Shown: positions 17,267 to 53,134 of the stretch, in pieces
Position numbering within the stretch: the stretch's first letter is position 1
Layout of the letters: every line of letters starts with the position of its first letter
Assembly: GCA_017656425.1 (NCBI GenBank)
Contig: JACDNV010000002.1
Location: 183,512 to 247,511, forward strand
Source: Fidelibacterota bacterium
GTDB lineage: Bacteria; Fidelibacterota; UBA2242; B5-G15
Reading direction: 5' to 3'
Length of the DNA stretch: 64,000 nt
Program-made: the position numbers and the translations under genes
The notes under the pieces: model-generated
The model's input: only the letters and a program-made list of their open reading frames with translations
The model's database searches: none
Told to the model about the DNA's origin: nothing

Positions 17267-17922
17267 CTATAGTTTTTTATGGCAGAACCACCAGTCGTAG
17301 CAGGTATATTTTTCTTTTCTCTTCTGGGCAGATTCCACATCAGATGCCGGCGGTATGATTACCTCGTCTTTAACAAGTTCATTTTCAGGCCAGTTGGCAG
17401 GTATTGCTACTTTATTTGCGTCGGCAACCTGAAATCCTTTGATCATACGTAAGATTTCATCGATATTTCTTCCCAGTTCCTGTGGGTAGTAGAGTATCGC
17501 TCTTATTTTCCCTCGGGATCTACCACAAATACAACCCTGACAGTGTTAGTGCCTTTACCAGGATGAATCAATCCCAATTTTTTACTTATCTCACCGGTAT
17601 CATCGGCTATTACAGAGAATTGAGTTTCAACTTCCAGATTGTCTTTTATCCACTCAACCCATTTAATGTGAGAAAAAACCTGGTCAATGCTTAGCCCTAT
17701 AAGTTCACAGTTTAACTCCTTAAATTTTTCGTATCTTTCCTGGAAAGCGAAAAATTCTGTGGTGCAAACTGGCGTAAAATCTGCAGGATGACTGAAAAAT
17801 ACAAACCATTTTCCTCTAAAATGTTCAGGAAGATTAAAAGTTCCTAAGGTAGTTTTTACTTTCAATTCAGGGAATTTTTCTCCGATTAATGGAAACTTGT
17901 TTTCATTCATTTTGTTCTCCAT
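17267..17922 (-). pseudogene. 1-Cys (Prx6-type) peroxiredoxin, disrupted by a 1-nt deletion (homopolymer)
   Basis: ORF 17503..17922 has PVCTTE peroxidatic Cys motif and stops at …VVDPEGK*; my translation of the -1 frame downstream gives [26 protein letters not shown]…[11 protein letters not shown], the conserved Prx C-terminus; frames rejoin if one A is added to the AAAA run at 17506-17509. Confidence 0.7.
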
Positions 17923-24323: not shown

Positions 24324-25526
24324 CTATTTTTCTTTTTCCTTCTCCTTAAGTTCTGCAATTTGTTTCCGATATTCTTCAACTTTATCTATATCTTTTTTCC
24401 TTTTTTCGAGTACTTTTAAAACCTCAAGTGCCTGATCGTAGAGTTTTTGTTTTATCAATACTTCCACAAGGGTAAAGGTGGGTACCGGTATTTTTAATTC
24501 CAGGGATTCTCTTTCATCAGAGGTTACTTCCTCTATCTCTGCACCCGGATGTCTTTCTTGCACTTTTACTTCTTCCACTTTTTCTTCTTTGAACACCTTC
24601 TTTTCTTTTTCTTCTAACTCAACCTCCGTTTTTTCTTCGATTTCTGTGGGTTTTTCTGTTTTTCCCTGCGCTTCTTTAGTGATTACCTCTTCTGGTTTTT
24701 CTGATGGTTCTTTTACTGCAGATTTTTCCTCCTCCTTTAATTGAGATTCTATCATTCTTTCGGTATCCTCTTCCTCGTGACTTTCAGCGAGTTCTATATC
24801 TTTAAATTCTTCTATATCAAGCGGACCCAATGAACCATAGGGTGCTGATTTTAATTTCTCAATTATTGAGGTAAGTCTGTCCTTACTCTGCGATGGTTGT
24901 GGTTTTTCAGTGGATTCATGTTCTTCTATCTCTTTTTTTTCTTCTATTTTCTTATTTATTTCTTCGGTTTCCTTTGTGATATCCTCTACAGGACCGAGAT
25001 GTGCTTCCTCTTCTGGAATTACCTCTTTTTCAACAATGTCAAATGATGGTTCCCCTTCTATAGCTTCATCTTTTTCTTCTGTTTCAGTAGTTTTTAACTC
25101 ACCTTCCTCTTCGTGAGTCTTCTTTTCTTCAAAATAATCTTTTTTTTCAAAGGGATTTAGTAATTTTATCCTTTCAAGATAATGTTCAGAATCTTTTTCG
25201 CTTAAGTTGTCAATGCCGTATTCTATAATATCATAGAGGGCATGTAGAAAATCTGGATCATATTTTATTGTTAATTTCAATTCCTCAATAGCATTATCAA
25301 TATCGCCCTGTTTAAGTAAAACCTTTGATAAAACATAGTGACCATATGCATAATCTGGATGGTAATTTAATCCCTGATTCAAAATTTCCAGAGCCTGTTC
25401 TATATTATCTTGTTGTAACTCAAAATCTGCTATAATGGGAAAGGTTAAACTATCAGGATTTGATTCAAAGAATTTTATCAAATTTGCTTTTGTTTCTTCT
25501 TTCAATTTTTCCCCCATTTTTTTCAA
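24324..25526 (-). CDS. TPR-repeat protein with long Glu/Lys-rich low-complexity central region
   Basis: N-terminal TPR helices (…YAYGHYVLSKVLLKQGDIDNAIEELKLTIKYDPDF…), central EEK/EKE-rich ~200 aa, C-terminal helical segment. Confidence 0.5.
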   Translation of the reverse strand: MKKMGEKLKEETKANLIKFFESNPDSLTFPIIADFELQQDNIEQALEILNQGLNYHPDYAYGHYVLSKVLLKQGDIDNAIEELKLTIKYDPDFLHALYDIIEYGIDNLSEKDSEHYLERIKLLNPFEKKDYFEEKKTHEEEGELKTTETEEKDEAIEGEPSFDIVEKEVIPEEEAHLGPVEDITKETEEINKKIEEKKEIEEHESTEKPQPSQSKDRLTSIIEKLKSAPYGSLGPLDIEEFKDIELAESHEEEDTERMIESQLKEEEKSAVKEPSEKPEEVITKEAQGKTEKPTEIEEKTEVELEEKEKKVFKEEKVEEVKVQERHPGAEIEEVTSDERESLELKIPVPTFTLVEVLIKQKLYDQALEVLKVLEKRKKDIDKVEEYRKQIAELKEKEKEK

Positions 25527-29439: not shown

Positions 29440-30291
29440 TTAAAATTTCCCAACGTAGATAGCAATCAAACCAAAGAATATATCGTATTTTAATAATGTT
29501 TGAAGCTTTCTACAATTCTTTGATGAAAAATTTCTATTGATAGAAACAATTGTATAAATAACAGCTGGTAGAATGAAAAGTATTATAGTAACAATGTAAT
29601 AAATGCCGTAAATATTACTAAAGTAAGGGTAAAAGATTGTTATTGTCAGTAAAGTTAATACAATTGTTACTATTTTCGAAGACTTTTTCAACCCCAATAT
29701 AGCAGGCAGTGTTCTTGCCCCTACTTTTGTATCTCCCTCGACATCCTCCATGTCCTTGATTATTTCTCTAGCAATGGTAAAAAAGAACGTAAGAAAGAAT
29801 GGTATTATACCTTTATGATAGTCTCCGTAGACTTCGGTTGAAAAAATAAATGCGAGTCCAAGAATGAATGATACAACTATATTTCCAATTATTGGAAGTT
29901 TTTTAAATAGCAGACTATATCCAATCAGGGAAATAAGAGTTATGAGTATTATCATGAAAATTCGCCGATTCATTATTATAGTTGATAATGATGTGCTCGA
30001 TATAAATAAAATGCAGGATAAAGTCAGTGCCTCAGTTTTTTTGACTCTTCCCGATGGTATAGGTCTTGATGGACGATTTATCTTGTCAATTTTATAATCA
30101 CAATAATCGTTTAGGCTATTACCTGCTGCCATGAATAGCACAATAATCCCGGTAGCAATTAGGATTTTTTCTAGTGACGGAAGGCTGTCCATTATAAGGG
30201 CTGAGATTATTGCAGAAATACTTCCCTGGAGTAGGTTTAATGGTCTTGCCAGTTCTATATAAGAGGTGATTTTAGCCAATATTTTTTGCAA
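29440..30291 (-). CDS. UbiA-family aromatic prenyltransferase
   Basis: 9-TM protein with NDYCDYKIDKINRPSRPIPSG Asp-rich motif. Confidence 0.75.
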   Translation of the reverse strand: MQKILAKITSYIELARPLNLLQGSISAIISALIMDSLPSLEKILIATGIIVLFMAAGNSLNDYCDYKIDKINRPSRPIPSGRVKKTEALTLSCILFISSTSLSTIIMNRRIFMIILITLISLIGYSLLFKKLPIIGNIVVSFILGLAFIFSTEVYGDYHKGIIPFFLTFFFTIAREIIKDMEDVEGDTKVGARTLPAILGLKKSSKIVTIVLTLLTITIFYPYFSNIYGIYYIVTIILFILPAVIYTIVSINRNFSSKNCRKLQTLLKYDIFFGLIAIYVGKF

Positions 30292-31201: not shown

Positions 31202-32269
31202 TTATTCTGTCTGTTGTAGTAATTCGTTATTATAAGCTATTCTCAATGCATCGATTAATTCATCAAGATCACCATCCATTATTTCATTTAATTTATATAA
31301 AGTAAGGTTTATCCTATGGTCGGTTACTCTGCCCTGAGGAAAATTATAAGTTCTGATTTTTGCACTTCTGTCTCCAGTGGAAATCATTGACCTTCTTTTT
31401 TCAGCCAGTTCTTTTTCCTGTTCTTCCTGTTTTAACTGCAAGAGTCTTGTCTTTAAAATCTTCATTGCTTTTTGTTTATTTCTGAATTGAGATTTTTCAT
31501 CCTGGCATGTTACGACAATACCTGTAGGAATATGGGTTATTCTAACTGCTGTTTCTACTTTATTGACATGCTGACCACCATGTCCACTTGCTCTATAGGT
31601 ATCGATTCTTAAATCATCCGGGTTTATATCTATATCAACGTCTTCTGCTTCTGGAAGGACTGCAACTGATGCTGCGGAAGTGTGTATTCTTCCACTTGTC
31701 TCGGTGATCGGGACTCTTTGAACTCGATGAACACCACTTTCGAATTTCATAGTTCCGTATATATCATCACCTGATAATAGAAATATGATTTCTTTATAAC
31801 CGCCTATACCTGTTTCATTGCTGGATAGAACTTCTATATTCCATCCTTTTTTTTCTGCAAACTTTGTGTACATTCTGTAAAGGTCTGCTGCGAATATTGC
31901 TGCTTCTTCACCTCCTGTGCCTGCTCTAATTTCCACAACAGCATTGCGGCTATCATTTGGATCTTTAGGAAGGAGTAGTATTTTTAGTTCTTCTTTTAAT
32001 TTTTCTTCTTTTTCTTCAAGTTTTGCAAGTTCTTCTTTTACCAGTGCTTTAAGTTCCGGGTCACCTTCTTGAAGAATTTCTCTATCTTCTTTGATTTGCT
32101 TTAATAGCTTGATATACTCTTTGCCCTTTTCGACAATTGGAAAAAGCCCTTTATGTTCCTTGGCAAGGGCTTTGAACTTTTCAGGATCGGAAGCAATTTC
32201 AGGATTTGATAATTGAGAGGAGATTTCATCATATCTTTTTATTATGCTGTTAATTTTTTCTTCAACCAT
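31202..32269 (-). CDS. prfA: Peptide chain release factor 1
   Basis: GGQHVNK motif and PIT (PxT) RF1 tripeptide; 355 aa. Confidence 0.95.
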
Positions 32270-32272
32270 ATT

Positions 32273-33220
32273 TTACTCGATTGCTTTTGCAGTAAATTTT
32301 TTGCCGCTGTACTTCTCGAAATTATCGCCGAAGCTACTTTTAAGCGCCGTTATTGCTACTTCTAACTGATCATTACTGGGTTTATGTGTCGTAATTCTCT
32401 GAAGTGCCAGCCCGGGGAAAGATAAAATTTTAATAAATATGTTATTTTGATTTCTTGATGTTATTTTAAGAAGTTCATATGAAATACCCAACACAGGTAA
32501 AAGTAGTATAAAATGATAAAATAACCTGTTATAAATCGTAATATTTCCCTTAATTAGAATAATAATGGTATCAATAATTGCAAAGGTTACTATGGAAAAT
32601 ATTAGCATTACAAAAATAAAGCTCGTGCCACATCTGGGGTGATGGGTCGAGTATTTTTTCGCATTTTCTACATTCAATTCCTCTCCATTCTCGAAAGCAA
32701 ATACTACCTGATGTTCAGCTCCGTGGTATTGAAATATTCTTTTTATATCCTTAAGAAAGTTTATAAATATTAGATAAGCTACAAAAAAACCAATTCGTAG
32801 AAGCCCCGAGCTCAGGTTAAAGAGAGCAGCCTTTTGTTCTATATTGAATAATTTGGTTGTAAGAAGTATAGGTAGGTAGAAAAAGAATACAAAGGCAACA
32901 ACGATTGCAATAGAAAAAGATAGAAAGCTGTAGATTTTTTCTTTCAAACTTTCTTTTTTTATATCGGATTTTTCTTCAAAAACTTTGGCTGAAAATTGTA
33001 ATGCTTCAAGTCCAATTTTTAGTGACTCATATAAAGAGATTATACCTCGAATTAAAGGTAGTGATAGGAATTTATATCTTTTTGTAAGGGATTTATAATC
33101 TTTTCTAATAGTTTCGATTTCGCCATTTGGATTTCTGACTGATACTGCGTATCCATCGGGTCCTCTCATCAAAACCCCTTCTATCACAGCCTGACCGCCA
33201 ACTAAAATAGGTTCGTTCAT
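32273..33220 (-). CDS. DUF1385-family membrane-associated protein (commonly upstream of prfA)
   Basis: N-terminal GGQAVIEGVLMRG signature and conserved gene order with prfA/prmC. Confidence 0.55.
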   Translation of the reverse strand: MNEPILVGGQAVIEGVLMRGPDGYAVSVRNPNGEIETIRKDYKSLTKRYKFLSLPLIRGIISLYESLKIGLEALQFSAKVFEEKSDIKKESLKEKIYSFLSFSIAIVVAFVFFFYLPILLTTKLFNIEQKAALFNLSSGLLRIGFFVAYLIFINFLKDIKRIFQYHGAEHQVVFAFENGEELNVENAKKYSTHHPRCGTSFIFVMLIFSIVTFAIIDTIIILIKGNITIYNRLFYHFILLLPVLGISYELLKITSRNQNNIFIKILSFPGLALQRITTHKPSNDQLEVAITALKSSFGDNFEKYSGKKFTAKAIE

Positions 33221-33276
33221 TTTAAATTATCCTGATAGTTTGGATTTTATTGGTTGAAATTTATGTCTATCGGGTG

Positions 33277-33498
33277 CTAACCCTTGTTACTGTTTTCCTT
33301 GTTTAAATTGTATTTACGTAGAAATTTTTCAATTCTTCCTGCGGAATCGACAAGTTTTTGTTTGCCCGTGAAAAATGGGTGACAATTAGAACATATTTCC
33401 ACTTTTATTTCAGACCTTATTGACCTTGTTATAAAGGTATTACCGCATGCACAGGTTACTTTACAAATTTTATATTCTGGATGTATTCCTTTCTTCAT
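33277..33498 (-). CDS. rpmE: 50S ribosomal protein L31 (Zn-ribbon type)
   Basis: [10 protein letters not shown]…CxC…[10 protein letters not shown]. Confidence 0.9.
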
Positions 33499-33899
33499 TT
33501 CCGTCCCTTCATTGTTTTAAAAGCTGTTGAATTTAATGAATTTATCTTGTTAAATGCAATATGGAAGAAGAAAGTGATTGAAAAATTCTCCTTAAAAATC
33601 ATAGGAAAATGTGATTATTCTAAATTTATAATGAGGACCAAAACAGGGAATTCTTCAAAAAAGTTATGTGTAAATTTGGTAAAATGATCTATATCTGAGA
33701 ATTATATAACTACATCTATATCAGAAGACATGGTTCCATAAAGCCTTAATCCCATATTTATCCACTCTTTATAAATTTTTATGTTATTATCAGATAAATT
33801 TTCTGGAATTTTTCCCGAACTTCCATGAAGGTTTACAAATAATGAAAATGAAATTAAGATTAAAAATATTTTAGTTTCATCATTTCCTCCCAATTTTAT

Positions 33900-34401
33900 T
33901 TTTCAATTATAATTTTTCACTTACTGTCACAACCCGAAATGAACACCTCATACCCACTATTTTCTAATAATTGAAAGCTTTTATTTTTTGATATGCTATG
34001 CCATACATGTCATAAATGATTGTACCAACTATTGAAAGCTCTGATATTTCAAAAGCTACTCACATCCAAGGAATGAAAGGATCAGGATAATTTTGATATA
34101 GTTTATATCCAAGTAGAGTGTTTTGCCCTTTTTTATCCCCAATTTCTATTATTGAAAAATTTATTGTATAATTACCCTCATTATCGGAATAAGTTGAAAA
34201 TGTATCTTTGTATTCATTTATAAAACTAACCTTTGCTCCTTGAATACCGATTTTAGAGTAACTATCAAGTACTTTACCTTTTACTATTACTGAAGTTTGT
34301 GGACGTGATTTGGCAATTAAAAGTATTGTAAAAGTGGCAATAGTTATTATTTTAAAGGAACGGCATACAAATAGATGTAATCTCCCCACTGAATTAATCA
34401 C
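33900..34401 (-). pseudogene. Decayed small secreted protein with CarboxypepD_reg-like domain and T9SS C-terminal sorting domain
   Basis: ORF 34060..34401 has signal peptide, beta-sandwich-like segment and LYQNYPDPF (T9SS CTD start) then TGA; my in-frame translation past the TGA gives VAFEISELSIVGTIIYDMYGIAYQKIKAFNY* (CTD-like KIYD.LG block), then a frameshift to …ENSGYEVFISGCDSK*. Confidence 0.5.
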
Positions 34402-34724
34402 GAAGCTTATTTCCTTAATAACACTTCATTGTAAATATTTATTTATTACATTAAAGATTTTAATATCAAAATAATTTTATGTCAACTCCTTTCTTAATTT
34501 TTACTAAATTCTTTTAACATCCTTTATGCCATTAATCTATTTAAGATATTATAGCGATTATGTTAATTTAGTTACATATACATTCTGTATAATTTTGTTA
34601 GTTTAAATTAAATTTTTATAGATATATTGAATAATCGGCCAGTAGAACTTACTCTTGTATTAAACGTCACTTAAGTGTAATTTTACTTTTGATAGATTAT
34701 GGTGTTTAAGGAATTTATTAAAAT

Positions 34725-35354
34725 ATGAGCAGTTTTTTAAAAAAGGTAAGAGTTCAGATACGCAATAAGATTCTTACCGGTGTTCTGGCGTTAATACCGA
34801 TTGCTGTCACAATTTATCTGATAAGACTTTTTGTAGAGTTTTTTGATAATATAGTAAGTCCAATTATTGATCCTTATATTGGTTTTCATATACCAGGTCT
34901 AGGGATAGTAGTGTTCTTCATTATTCTTTATATCCTCGGACTCTTCGTATCCAATCTATTAGGTAAGAAGCTATTATTACTTATTGAAAAATGGTTGAAT
35001 TACATACCTATTGCTGGAACGATTTACAGAACTGCAAAGCAGATTGTATATGCTTTTTCTGTTCAGGGAAAGGGTTTCGAAAAAGTAGTTTTTATAGAAT
35101 ACCCGAGGAGTGGAATTTGGACTATAGCTTTTGTTACTGGTGAATCAGTGGGAAAAGATGGCGCCGAATTTTATAACCTGTTTGTTCCGACAACACCTAA
35201 TCCAACTTCTGGATGGGCTCTTTTTATTCCAAAGGAAGATGTCATCCCATCGGAGATGACCATTGAGCAGGGTTTAAAAGCATTGATATCTGGAGGTGCC
35301 GTCGCTCCTCAAAAAATGAGTTTTATAAGGAAAAATAAAAAGGGAAATGAATAA
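34725..35354 (+). CDS. DUF502-family membrane protein
   Basis: Two N-terminal TM helices and DUF502-like core; 209 aa. Confidence 0.5.
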   Translation: MSSFLKKVRVQIRNKILTGVLALIPIAVTIYLIRLFVEFFDNIVSPIIDPYIGFHIPGLGIVVFFIILYILGLFVSNLLGKKLLLLIEKWLNYIPIAGTIYRTAKQIVYAFSVQGKGFEKVVFIEYPRSGIWTIAFVTGESVGKDGAEFYNLFVPTTPNPTSGWALFIPKEDVIPSEMTIEQGLKALISGGAVAPQKMSFIRKNKKGNE

Positions 35355-50647: not shown

Positions 50648-53134
50648 ATGTTAATAAAAAGAATCCTTTTTATAATAGTTTTTTTGCAAAGTATTGTATT
50701 TGCTCAGAGTAATGCAAGCATTTATGGCTTTGTGCGTGAGAAAGCTACAGGCGAACCGTTATCTTATGTTAATGTTTTTTTGAAGGGGACTGACTTTGGA
50801 GCTCCTACCAATAGTGAAGGCTACTATTCGATTTCATTTGTTCCTGCTGGTGAATATGAAATTGTTGTCTCTATGATTGGTTATGAAACTATCACAAAAA
50901 AGGCGAAAGTTGAAGCAGGGAAGGATTATAGATATGATTTTTTTATGAATATATCGCCTGTAGCTGGGGAGAAAATTACAGTAGTTGCTGAGAGAGAAAA
51001 GTTTAAGGAATCTCTAACAGTAAGTGGTTTTACATTCTCCATGAAGAGTATAAATAGTATCCCAGGGTTTATGGAATCGGATGTATTAAGAGCTATACAG
51101 CATCTCCCAGGAGTGCAATCAATTACTGATTATACGGCGGCGTTGTATGTTAGAGGTGGTACTCCAGATCAAAATCTTGTTATGATAGATGGGATCCCTA
51201 TCTATAATCCATTTCACCTGGGCGCGATTTTTTCAACTTTTAATACCGATGCAATAAAGGAAGCCGAATTTATTGCAGGTGGATTTCCTGTGGAGTATGG
51301 TGATAGGATTGGTTCAGTTATTAATATTGTTCAAAGGGATGGAAATGCTAACCAGATAAAAGGAAATGCCAATGTTTCACTAATTTCAAGTAAGATACTT
51401 TTGGAAGGACCTCTAAAAATTTCTAAAAATATAACAGGTACGTGGATGATAGGAGGCAGGAGAACATATTTTGATAAAATGTTTGATGGGGTAAATTTCA
51501 TAGTTGAAAAAATATCAGGGGAAGAAAATAGTTTAAAATTTCCATATTATTTTTATGATTTTAATAACAAGATAAATTTAAATATAGGAAATAACTACAG
51601 AATCACTTTGATATCGTTTTACGGAGATGATGTGTTTTACTATAAGCATAGAGATGAATATAGCTACGAATACCCGGAATTTAATGAGTATTCGTATCAT
51701 AAAGAGAGTGGTGAATTTACAGTAAAATGGGGTAATCGGGCAAATGGAATCATATGGCGGTGGTTACTGAGCCCAAGATTAGTTGTTAAGAATTATTTGT
51801 ACAACACAAGGTTTAGATTTTTCGTTGATGTATGGGGTAGGGAAAGTGAATATTATATAGCTGAACGAGATACAAATAGATCAAAAGTAAATTATGGTTT
51901 TAATACTTATGATTACATATCTGAAAACTCCTATAATATATCATTTTCCTATAAGTTATCTCCAAAGCATTTGGTATTATCTGGATGTGATATTAAATGG
52001 TATGACTATAATCTTGGAATGGAGATCTATGGTAAGGAATGGGAAGATACTTTATTATATTCAAATATTTATATGAAACCGTTAGATATGAAATATCATC
52101 CATTTGAGTATCATTTTTACATACAGGACAAATGGGAGATAAATCCTTTATTATTCTGCCAATTTGGGTTGAGGAGTTCGAAAAACACAAACCAAACAAA
52201 ATTTTATAATGATCCACGTTTTAATATCAAATACATGATAACAGAAAACTTATCAACAAAGTTTTCATGGGGGATTTATCACCAGTATTTAACAACGGCT
52301 AATCCGCCTGATGAAACCCTTAGACTTCTTGATGTGTGGTTACCTGTGGCTCGTGGTCATTTACCTATTAAAGCAATTCATAATATACTTGGGTTTGAAT
52401 ATCTACTGCCTAATAATTCATATTTCAGAATTGAAGGCTACTATAAAGATTATAAGAATCTACTTGAATTAAAAGCAGAAAAAATAACTGTAGAAGAAGA
52501 GGATGAAGGTATTGTTTTTAAACATGTTAATGAGTTTAGAAATGCAAAGGCTTATTCTTATGGTCTGGAAATATTGTACAAGAAAACGTCTGGCAAAATC
52601 CAAGGCTGGATTGGTTACAGCTATGCAGTTGTAAAGAAAAAATTGGAAGATGGGAATAAATGGTTTTTCCCTAAGTATGATAGGAGACACTCATTAAATA
52701 TTGTGGGATTTATTAAACTGAAAAATAATTTAAAATTAGGTACAACTCTGACATATTGCAGTGGTAATCCATATACTCCGATAGTTGGTAAGATTAAGGA
52801 ATTTTATATATTAATGGGAGGTGGTTATTACAGATATTTTGATTTATATGTCAATAATTTGTGGTTATTGGGAGAAAAAAATAGCGCAAGGTATCCTTAT
52901 TATTTTAGACTGGATATCGGGATAATGAAAAGGAAGGAAAAAAGTTGGGGTTCTTATGAATGGTATTTCCATATTATAAATGTTACAATGAGGTTAAATG
53001 TGATGACTTATATATATGAAGAACCTTATTATGAAGATGAAGTTATATATGAGGGGAAAAAACCTACTGTTGTAAAGTATCCAATACCAATGTTTCCGAT
53101 TATGCCTACATTTGGAGTGAAATTTGAATTCTAA
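50648..53134 (+). CDS. TonB-dependent outer-membrane receptor with N-terminal CarboxypepD_reg-like domain
   Basis: Signal peptide, carboxypeptidase-regulatory-like beta-sandwich, TonB-box-like EKITVVAE, plug, long beta-barrel ending in …FGVKFEF. Confidence 0.7.
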   Translation: MLIKRILFIIVFLQSIVFAQSNASIYGFVREKATGEPLSYVNVFLKGTDFGAPTNSEGYYSISFVPAGEYEIVVSMIGYETITKKAKVEAGKDYRYDFFMNISPVAGEKITVVAEREKFKESLTVSGFTFSMKSINSIPGFMESDVLRAIQHLPGVQSITDYTAALYVRGGTPDQNLVMIDGIPIYNPFHLGAIFSTFNTDAIKEAEFIAGGFPVEYGDRIGSVINIVQRDGNANQIKGNANVSLISSKILLEGPLKISKNITGTWMIGGRRTYFDKMFDGVNFIVEKISGEENSLKFPYYFYDFNNKINLNIGNNYRITLISFYGDDVFYYKHRDEYSYEYPEFNEYSYHKESGEFTVKWGNRANGIIWRWLLSPRLVVKNYLYNTRFRFFVDVWGRESEYYIAERDTNRSKVNYGFNTYDYISENSYNISFSYKLSPKHLVLSGCDIKWYDYNLGMEIYGKEWEDTLLYSNIYMKPLDMKYHPFEYHFYIQDKWEINPLLFCQFGLRSSKNTNQTKFYNDPRFNIKYMITENLSTKFSWGIYHQYLTTANPPDETLRLLDVWLPVARGHLPIKAIHNILGFEYLLPNNSYFRIEGYYKDYKNLLELKAEKITVEEEDEGIVFKHVNEFRNAKAYSYGLEILYKKTSGKIQGWIGYSYAVVKKKLEDGNKWFFPKYDRRHSLNIVGFIKLKNNLKLGTTLTYCSGNPYTPIVGKIKEFYILMGGGYYRYFDLYVNNLWLLGEKNSARYPYYFRLDIGIMKRKEKSWGSYEWYFHIINVTMRLNVMTYIYEEPYYEDEVIYEGKKPTVVKYPIPMFPIMPTFGVKFEF

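Follow-up and report, generated by a model that had tools for sequence, protein, structure and literature searches.

The 64,000-nucleotide (nt) stretch of Fidelibacterota contig JACDNV010000002.1 analysed here (hereafter the window) contains, at positions 33499-34724, an AT-rich, gene-poor island between an operon headed by rpmE and an operon headed by a DUF502 gene. With a probability of roughly 80%, this island represents non-functional debris of a two-gene cell-surface cassette of Marinimicrobia, left between the two operons at the scar of a rearrangement or deletion. It is a case of ordinary genome decay and a decayed example of an already known kind. The first gene of the cassette (gene 1) would originally have encoded a protein of ~175 amino acids (aa), consisting of a signal peptide, a 4-strand half CarboxypepD_reg-like domain, a floppy linker and a 7-strand type-A sorting domain of the secretion system type IX (T9SS). 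It has suffered a CGA-to-TGA nonsense mutation at codon 114, specific to the lineage of the window, a second stop codon, a probable frameshift, and a loss of ~20-25 codons within the final third of its sorting domain, which is the part known to carry the export signal. The second gene (gene 2) has kept its first ~82 codons, with four frame-breaking indels among them, and its remainder is deleted up to 139 nt before rpmE. Stops, frameshifts and truncations relative to intact homologues, the features by which pseudogenes are recognized, were thus found in gene 1 and gene 2.

The gene 1 remnant

The 5′ two-thirds of gene 1 are present as an open reading frame (ORF) encoding 113 aa on the minus strand (34060-34401), which starts with GTG and ends with ...LYQNYPDPFIPWM followed by TGA. 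The encoded sequence comprises the signal peptide, the half CarboxypepD_reg-like beta domain, the linker, and the first motif (QNYPDPF) of the T9SS type-A sorting domain. In the NCBI database it is listed as MBO8130313.1, 'carboxypeptidase regulatory-like domain-containing protein'. The premature TGA (codon 114; 34060-34062, minus strand) lies opposite a CGA (Arg) codon in the closest relative, a short metagenome contig referred to as L003. In the AlphaFold model of the intact relative P0006, the TGA falls where the first long beta-strand of the sorting domain begins.

Beyond the TGA, the frame continues as VAFEISELSIVGTIIYDMYGIAYQKIKAFNY (33964-34059, minus strand) and closes at a second stop (TAG, 33966-33964), which comes 32 codons past the first one. 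It is followed in another frame by the tail LLENSGYEVFISGCDSK*KIIIEK* (33896-33969, minus strand; asterisks denote stop codons), which is kept in L003 as LLKNKWFEVLISGCDGK*KIIIEK*. This tail probably contains the central part of the sorting domain and, after an internal deletion of ~20-25 codons, the original C-terminus with its original TAA; the KIIIEK* ending can be compared with KKMxLLK*, the consensus of the C-termini in the family. The direct repeat attgaaagct, already noticed in the initial annotation, is present twice within the remnant as the 10-nt sequence ATTGAAAGCT (coding strand AGCTTTCAAT), at 34031-34040 and, 61 nt from this first copy, at 33970-33979.

Homology of the remnant to T9SS sorting-domain proteins

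For the detection of relatives, the 145-aa read-through translation was used in a filter-free HMMER search against 1.84 billion representative proteins (E<=1e-3). It yielded 174 relatives, most of which align from about residue 20 to about residue 135-141, i.e. across the stop at codon 114. With TIGR04183 (cutoff 23), five intact relatives (P0003, P0006, P0007, P0009, and P0010) give 36-42 bits, and each of them matches PF18962 as well. Two of these are small proteins of full length, P0006 (182 aa) and P0009 (171 aa), with the endings KKILLIQ or QKMMLIK. The AlphaFold model of P0006, with a mean predicted local distance difference test score (pLDDT) of 84, consists of a signal helix (residues 3-23), a 4-strand N-domain (29-77), a floppy linker, and a 7-strand sandwich (95-180). 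According to Foldseek, this sandwich resembles the Ig-like domains of PorZ, PorU, and FlgD.

A family profile was built from 15 relatives. On this profile, the 113-aa ORF scores 74.2 bits and the read-through 93.9 bits, and the 31 residues after the TGA alone reach 9.8 bits (E 4e-5 for one sequence) and raise the score of the ORF by ~20 bits. Because the residues after the TGA score on the family profile, the in-frame continuation is real homology, while the frameshifted part is only plausible. The initial annotation had described a decayed T9SS sorting-domain gene that is interrupted by a TGA and continues in frame up to a second stop. Both parts of this description are supported, as relatives align through the TGA, intact relatives pass both curated sorting-domain profiles, and the segment between the TGA and the TAG at 33966-33964 is itself recognized.

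The search of the remnant against TIGR04183 (NCBIfam), which had been suggested as a check, came out negative: neither this profile nor PF18962 gave a match at E<=10 with the ORF, the read-through, or the frameshift-corrected translation. The assignment of the sorting domain therefore rests on family-level homology. The CarboxypepD_reg profile PF13620 gave 24.5 bits with the ORF, below its cutoff of 32.3, for aa 40-81 and profile positions 2-43 of 82. In the window, the N-terminal motif and the first strands of the sorting domain appear as QNYPDPFIPWM*VAFEISELSIVGTIIYDMYG, with 39.9 bits on the family profile for the sorting-domain part. They follow the consensus (QNYPNPFNP.T.I.F.L....V.L.IYD.LG), in a form degraded in comparison to L003; the motif itself has decayed to QNYPDPFIPWM* versus QNYPNPFNPGMR (20.8 versus 32.8 bits). 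A word-indexed protein search of 5.8 billion clusters with the read-through as query returned only the ORF itself.

For profile positions ~130-170, no match was found anywhere in the remnant in the window, and at most the terminus KIIIEK* is left. The last third of the sorting domain, including its last strands, is gone from the window. In RgpB of P. gingivalis, the export signal is located in the 22 C-terminal residues of the sorting domain; cutting off the last few blocks export (PMC4804311). Without the last third and its export signal, a product made here would be unable to use the T9SS. If the 113-aa ORF were translated, the product would be a Sec-exported fragment without a T9SS signal, which, according to established T9SS biology, could be neither secreted nor anchored by this system. 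A literature search for T9SS in Marinimicrobia yielded nothing useful.

The TGA is a genuine stop codon

The TGA and the lesions downstream of it could be sequencing or assembly errors, or the TGA could be recoded as selenocysteine or as a sense codon, and in either case the gene would be intact. AT-rich and strain-variable regions are prone to errors, and several assemblies break within the island, namely at 33776 (L022), ~33917 (L023), 34252 (L021), and 34371 (L002), with Logan contigs breaking at 33776 and 34371. However, the identical TGA is present in the window, which stems from an NCBI metagenome-assembled genome (MAG), and in the three JGI assemblies 3300033150 (L001), 3300033156 (L021), and 3300033148 (L023). 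These four assemblies carry four alleles, all of them ending with PDPFIPWM*. In the window, 13 of the 61 long ORFs are terminated by TGA, which is therefore an ordinary stop here, and no conserved gene of the window requires TGA as sense codon. Even with read-through of the TGA, translation would end at the TAG and the last third of the domain would be absent; moreover, the downstream lesions are shared by L003. The same TGA in four independent assemblies and alleles, together with the TGA usage, excludes assembly error and recoding for practical purposes, so that this explanation is effectively refuted. Recoding was rejected already on the basis of stop-codon usage, and the assembly error that the initial annotation had named as the finding that would restore an intact gene did not materialize.

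The contig breaks within the island in four assemblies fit either a repeat of ~650 bp or strain microdiversity. Two haplotypes of the population differ at ~27 positions between 33588 and 34127.

Gene 1 lesions shared with related contigs

The best non-self protein match of the ORF is P0002 (81 aa, 66% identical), which is encoded on the short ENA metagenome contigs L003, L004, and L006. On the DNA level (blastn), positions 34252-34031 of the window correspond to positions 913-1134 of L003 with 84.7% identity and without gaps, and positions 33979-33638 correspond to L003 1125-1468 with 80.8% identity; the latter segment is 81% identical to a further contig, L005. L003 contains one copy of the decamer and is devoid of exactly the 61 nt between the two copies of the window, and the same segment is deleted in L004 and L006. 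The sequence encoded by these 61 nt resembles a sorting domain, and the simplest reading is hence that the L003 lineage lost them by a repeat-mediated deletion.

The window and L003 also have a junction in common, ...ISGCD(S/G)K*KIIIEK*, followed by GGAGG and then by ATGATG. In addition, the SGVYFY... strands are absent from both, and the frame offset is identical. From the shared junction, the missing strands, and the shared offset we infer that gene 1 was probably already broken in the common ancestor. Being common to the window and to L003, L004, and L006 (~81-85% DNA identity), the frameshift and the internal loss would predate the split of these lineages. L005 is 100% identical to a GTDB contig (L024) of the Candidatus Neomarinimicrobiota MAG B5_G15, and hence these relatives and the window share their phylum.

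The gene 2 remnant

The remnant of a second gene at 33883-33638 is missing from the initial annotation, which had treated 33499-33701 as a spacer of 200 bp. Homology to gene 2 reaches to ~33638, so this region is not a pure spacer. The remnant (33638-33883, minus strand) comprises the first ~82 codons of a gene of 176 codons for a hypothetical, secreted all-beta protein that is conserved (P0151/P0152) and is preceded by a GGAGG Shine-Dalgarno motif at 33887-33891. Four lesions break its frame: a 1-nt deletion at ~33873, a 4-nt deletion at ~33702, a 1-nt insertion at ~33678, and a 1-nt deletion at ~33648. Codons ~83-176 are lost, and homology stops 139 nt before rpmE. A 63-aa ORF with a TTG start (33702-33893, minus strand), listed by NCBI as hypothetical protein H0Z29_02215, lies within the remnant and has no Pfam or NCBIfam match.

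Intact copies of gene 2 were found elsewhere as genes for 176 or 178 aa in L003, L006, and L005. In L003 and L006, the gene for the 176-aa protein P0151 is located directly downstream of gene 1 and is followed by a third gene; the L005 copy P0152 is 74% identical. Gene 2 has no Pfam or NCBIfam match, and its AlphaFold model (mean pLDDT 37) was unusable, so that no claim on its fold is made. In Neomarinimicrobiota, gene 2 and gene 3 form a conserved module that has no family assignment, which was observed in L003 (1224-2428), L006 (1105-3280), L005 (5817-7051), and L024. It consists of the gene for the secreted all-beta protein of 176-178 aa and a gene for a protein with a weak Ig-like match. 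The gene upstream of this module varies and is either a sorting-domain relic or a gene for an FG-GAP protein.

Could the 113-aa ORF be a retained gene?

Alternatively, the 113-aa ORF could be a live, shortened gene that has lost its T9SS tail and was retained for a Sec-exported mini-protein composed of the signal peptide and the 4-strand half-domain. Two copies of it might exist, its promoter might read into the rpmE-prfA operon, and only the sequence after the TGA would be debris. We consider such a gene unlikely, but several observations speak for it and weigh against the interpretation of the whole island as dead. The signal peptide is intact, a Shine-Dalgarno-like AAGGA motif is located ~10 nt before the GTG start, and a sigma-70-like site (TTGACA-17 nt-TAAAAT; 11 of 12 positions, a consensus match only) is located upstream of the ORF at 34457-34485 on the minus strand. 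Neither a terminator-like site in 33200-34900 nor a sigma-70-like site within the 139 nt preceding rpmE was found, and the frame is open in all four of the four alleles. The N-domain is closer to the family consensus than that of L003 (34.5 versus 28.3 bits), and it folds independently in the P0006 model (pLDDT ~95). Furthermore, a second, 99% identical protein with the same C-terminus (MBO8130208.1) is recorded for the same MAG contig.

The comparison with strain L001 also belongs to this side of the argument. The ORF is 98.8% identical to its L001 counterpart (1.2% of positions differ), versus ~6% difference in the downstream debris. Strain divergence is patchy elsewhere in the window as well, so this contrast may reflect a recombination tract rather than neutrality, and the patch with 6% divergence was rejected as proof of neutrality because similar patches are present inside coding genes at 25000-25500 and 29500-30000. 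Two further points weaken the case for decay. First, the differences in gene 1 between the window and L003 correspond to an omega of 0.65, a value that could be obtained from decay on the L003 branch alone, as the L003 copy is itself dead; neutrality of the window copy is thus not demonstrated. Second, the frameshifted continuation 'SGYEVFISGCDS' described in the initial annotation is plausible and conserved in L003, but it is unproven, since matching LLENSGYEVFISGCDSK to the family profile gives a score of -1.5 bits, and the tail is thus not statistically recognizable.

Against a retained gene, the strain differences within the ORF are all replacements (R7K, R14C, and G92E) with no synonymous change, compared to 43 synonymous and 47 replacement differences in the neighbouring genes, although the sample is small. 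The differences to L003 are distributed evenly over the codon positions (11/12/11; omega 0.65). Outside this population, no relative ending at this position was found among the 5.8 billion clusters and the 1.84 billion representatives, and the otherwise conserved QNYPNPF motif is eroding. Finally, the promoter scan found 9 sites versus 11.7 expected from shuffled sequences, so that the promoter match is no evidence of function. Taken together, we prefer decay of both genes as the explanation for the island.

The second protein, MBO8130208.1 (P0001), also has 113 aa, starts with ATG, carries Cys14, and has the same ...PWM end. Its accession number precedes MBO8130313.1 by ~105 numbers, and it is apparently encoded on the same MAG contig (308,169 bp), while the neighbouring genes have single accessions. 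It represents either a true duplicate of the relic of ~650 bp or an assembly artefact. Within the 64 kb of the window, no second copy of the ORF was found.

When the window was compared with the 99% identical strain L001, the differences were found to cluster in patches of ~500 bp at 25000-25500 and 29500-30000 (21 and 25 differences, respectively), which suggests recombination tracts between strains. In a UbiA-family gene, 12 synonymous and 17 replacement differences were counted between the window and L001. In JGI contig Ga0366835_1001065 (L001 6644-8503, corresponding to window 32208-32387), a deletion of ~159 bp fuses the DUF1385 gene and prfA into an ORF of 619 aa, whereas the DUF1385 gene and prfA (release factor 1) are separate and intact in the window, L021, and L022. 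The fusion in L001 could result from a misassembly, or else from a deletion in an essential gene that is specific to this strain.

Genomic setting of the island

With long ORFs masked, the island (1226 bp) is the largest non-coding gap of the window, followed by one of 492 bp, and ~92% of the window is coding sequence in long ORFs. The GC content of the island is 25.9%, compared to 34.0% for the whole window, and drops to 20.4% in the spacer 34402-34724. The initial annotation was therefore right in describing an AT-rich, gene-poor island as the only gap exceeding 1 kb. The low GC content would agree with relaxed selection. On one side, the island is flanked by rpmE (33277-33498, minus strand), the head of an rpmE-DUF1385-prfA-prmC operon, and on the other side by the DUF502 gene (34725-35354, plus strand), the head of a DUF502-fakA-like-plsY operon.

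In 11 metagenomic loci with DUF502 proteins of 54-62% identity, the order DUF502-fakA-plsY is kept. Neither the island nor rpmE is present upstream of DUF502 in any of these 11 relatives, where other, tightly packed genes are found instead; the island therefore lies at a synteny breakpoint. In reference genomes, no orthologous locus was found with the FakA-like protein as query. Scans for tRNAs and tandem repeats gave nothing relevant to the island.

Genes for the T9SS machinery (PorK/L/M/N, SprA/Sov, PorV, and PorU) were absent from the annotated parts of the 64-kb window. From the sorting domain, the initial annotation had inferred an origin in the FCB (Fibrobacteres-Chlorobi-Bacteroidetes) group, which agrees with the NCBI label of the window, Candidatus Marinimicrobia/Neomarinimicrobiota. 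A TonB-dependent receptor encoded at 50648-53134 (plus strand), in which a CarboxypepD_reg domain at the N-terminus precedes a Plug domain, agrees with an FCB-group origin of the window, too; we take this domain order to be reminiscent of SusC-type receptors.

Elsewhere in the window, a peroxiredoxin appears to be divided between two minus-strand ORFs (17267-17446 and 17503-17922). One encodes the AhpC-TSA part, and the other, which uses another frame and lies within a 'gap' of 324 bp, encodes a separate 1-cysPrx_C part of 59 aa. A Logan contig gives the identical two gene calls. This locus (17267-17922) is probably another frameshifted gene.

Spacers and RNA candidates

The spacer at 34402-34724 separates the minus-strand 113-aa ORF from the plus-strand DUF502 gene; it is divergent and AT-rich (20% GC) and presumably serves as promoter region of both flanking genes. 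At the other end of the island, 139 nt upstream of rpmE (33499-33637, minus strand) show no homology to the relatives of the cassette and contain an AGGGA Shine-Dalgarno motif. They differ from L001 by a 7-nt indel and three single-nucleotide polymorphisms. This stretch presumably represents the 5′ region of rpmE, and it forms the right-hand edge of the deletion by which the rest of gene 2 was lost.

In the initial annotation, a small RNA or a structured leader of rpmE (ribosomal protein L31) had been proposed for 34402-34724 and 33499-33701. Both spacers are unusually long for this genome, and only 3 of the 323 positions of 34402-34724 deviate from L001. However, searches with Rfam gave no match in the entire window at gathering thresholds, and within 33200-34900 none at E<=1 either; none of the ribosomal-protein leader families in Rfam therefore matches. 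The z-scores of the minimum free energy of folding are -0.30 and +0.06 for the 34402-34724 spacer and +1.55 for the stretch before rpmE, and no terminator-like hairpins were found. In addition, positions 33638-33701 are debris of gene 2, and none of the 11 DUF502 loci offers a diverged orthologous spacer for covariation analysis. We found no support for the proposal and regard an RNA element in these spacers as very improbable.

An N-terminal module in the wider family and implications

Among the relatives of the ORF (P0003-P0140), the T9SS-type sorting-domain fold is not C-terminal in 73 of the 149 closest ones. In these it is located at the N-terminus, after a signal peptide and the half CarboxypepD_reg-like domain. 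In most of the 73, a conserved 'KKMLLLDG(G)' junction is followed by a Ser/Gly-rich linker; the strict DGG form is present in 31 of them. The payloads after the linker include Fib_succ_major, FGE-sulfatase, LRR, a PQQ propeller, and Big_5 with DPPIV_N/PD40. With this N-terminal location, the domain cannot serve as C-terminal export signal in these proteins. The family of the relic might accordingly not be ordinary T9SS cargo, and the ancestral gene 1 would then be the free-standing version of an N-terminal module of FCB bacteria, so far undescribed, for surface anchoring or sorting, with the 113-aa ORF possibly being a retained fragment; we consider this doubtful. A description of the N-terminal module was not found in the literature searches made. 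This large family of diverse surface proteins with an N-terminal sorting-domain fold is the more interesting by-product of the analysis and may merit a study of its own.

The direct value of the relic is modest. MBO8130313.1 and H0Z29_02215 are fragments of longer genes and would better be flagged as pseudogenes in GenBank. The relic also provides a dated gene loss in a Marinimicrobia lineage, with shared lesions older than ~15-19% DNA divergence and a lineage-specific nonsense mutation. Besides, the island marks a synteny breakpoint beside an operon for a ribosomal protein and a release factor, and the 61-nt deletion of the relative is bounded by a 10-nt repeat.

Comparison with known systems

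Proteins with a T9SS type-A sorting domain, such as RgpB, share with the window the QNYP(N/D)PF motif, the alternating-hydrophobic strands following it (…VAFEI…IYDMYG…), and a host from the FCB group. Also, the relatives of gene 1 pass the curated profiles, and the 7-strand sandwich of P0006 is like regions of PorZ and PorU. Unlike these proteins, the remnant fails both profiles, is broken by TGA and TAG, and lacks the strands with the export signal, and its 'cargo' is merely a half-domain of ~50 residues. With regard to CarboxypepD_reg (PF13620), the first ~43 profile positions match residues 40-81 of the ORF. In contrast to the full domain, half of the profile is covered in the ORF and in every relative that was scanned, and the P0006 model has 4 strands there instead of a full sandwich.

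The stand-alone metagenomic proteins P0006, P0009, P0063, and P0096, all of them uncharacterized, share the domain order of gene 1, from the signal peptide through the half CarboxypepD_reg-like domain and the linker to the sorting domain. The 15-relative profile is built around them, and the read-through aligns to it over positions 9-123 of 175. Unlike the window copy, these four proteins are intact and end with ...KKMxLxK; P0006 and P0009 are 35-37% identical to the window sequence. Closest on the DNA level are the contigs L003, L004, and L006 and the contig L005 (identical to L024), which share 81-85% identity with the window over 34252-33638 as well as the missing tail of the sorting domain. 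They differ from the window in their intact gene 2 and gene 3 and in their flanking genes, which are unrelated to rpmE or DUF502, and L005 carries the FG-GAP gene in place of gene 1. In L003, L004, and L006, gene 1 is without its 5′ end and the 61-nt segment, but it keeps the CGA codon that became TGA in the window.

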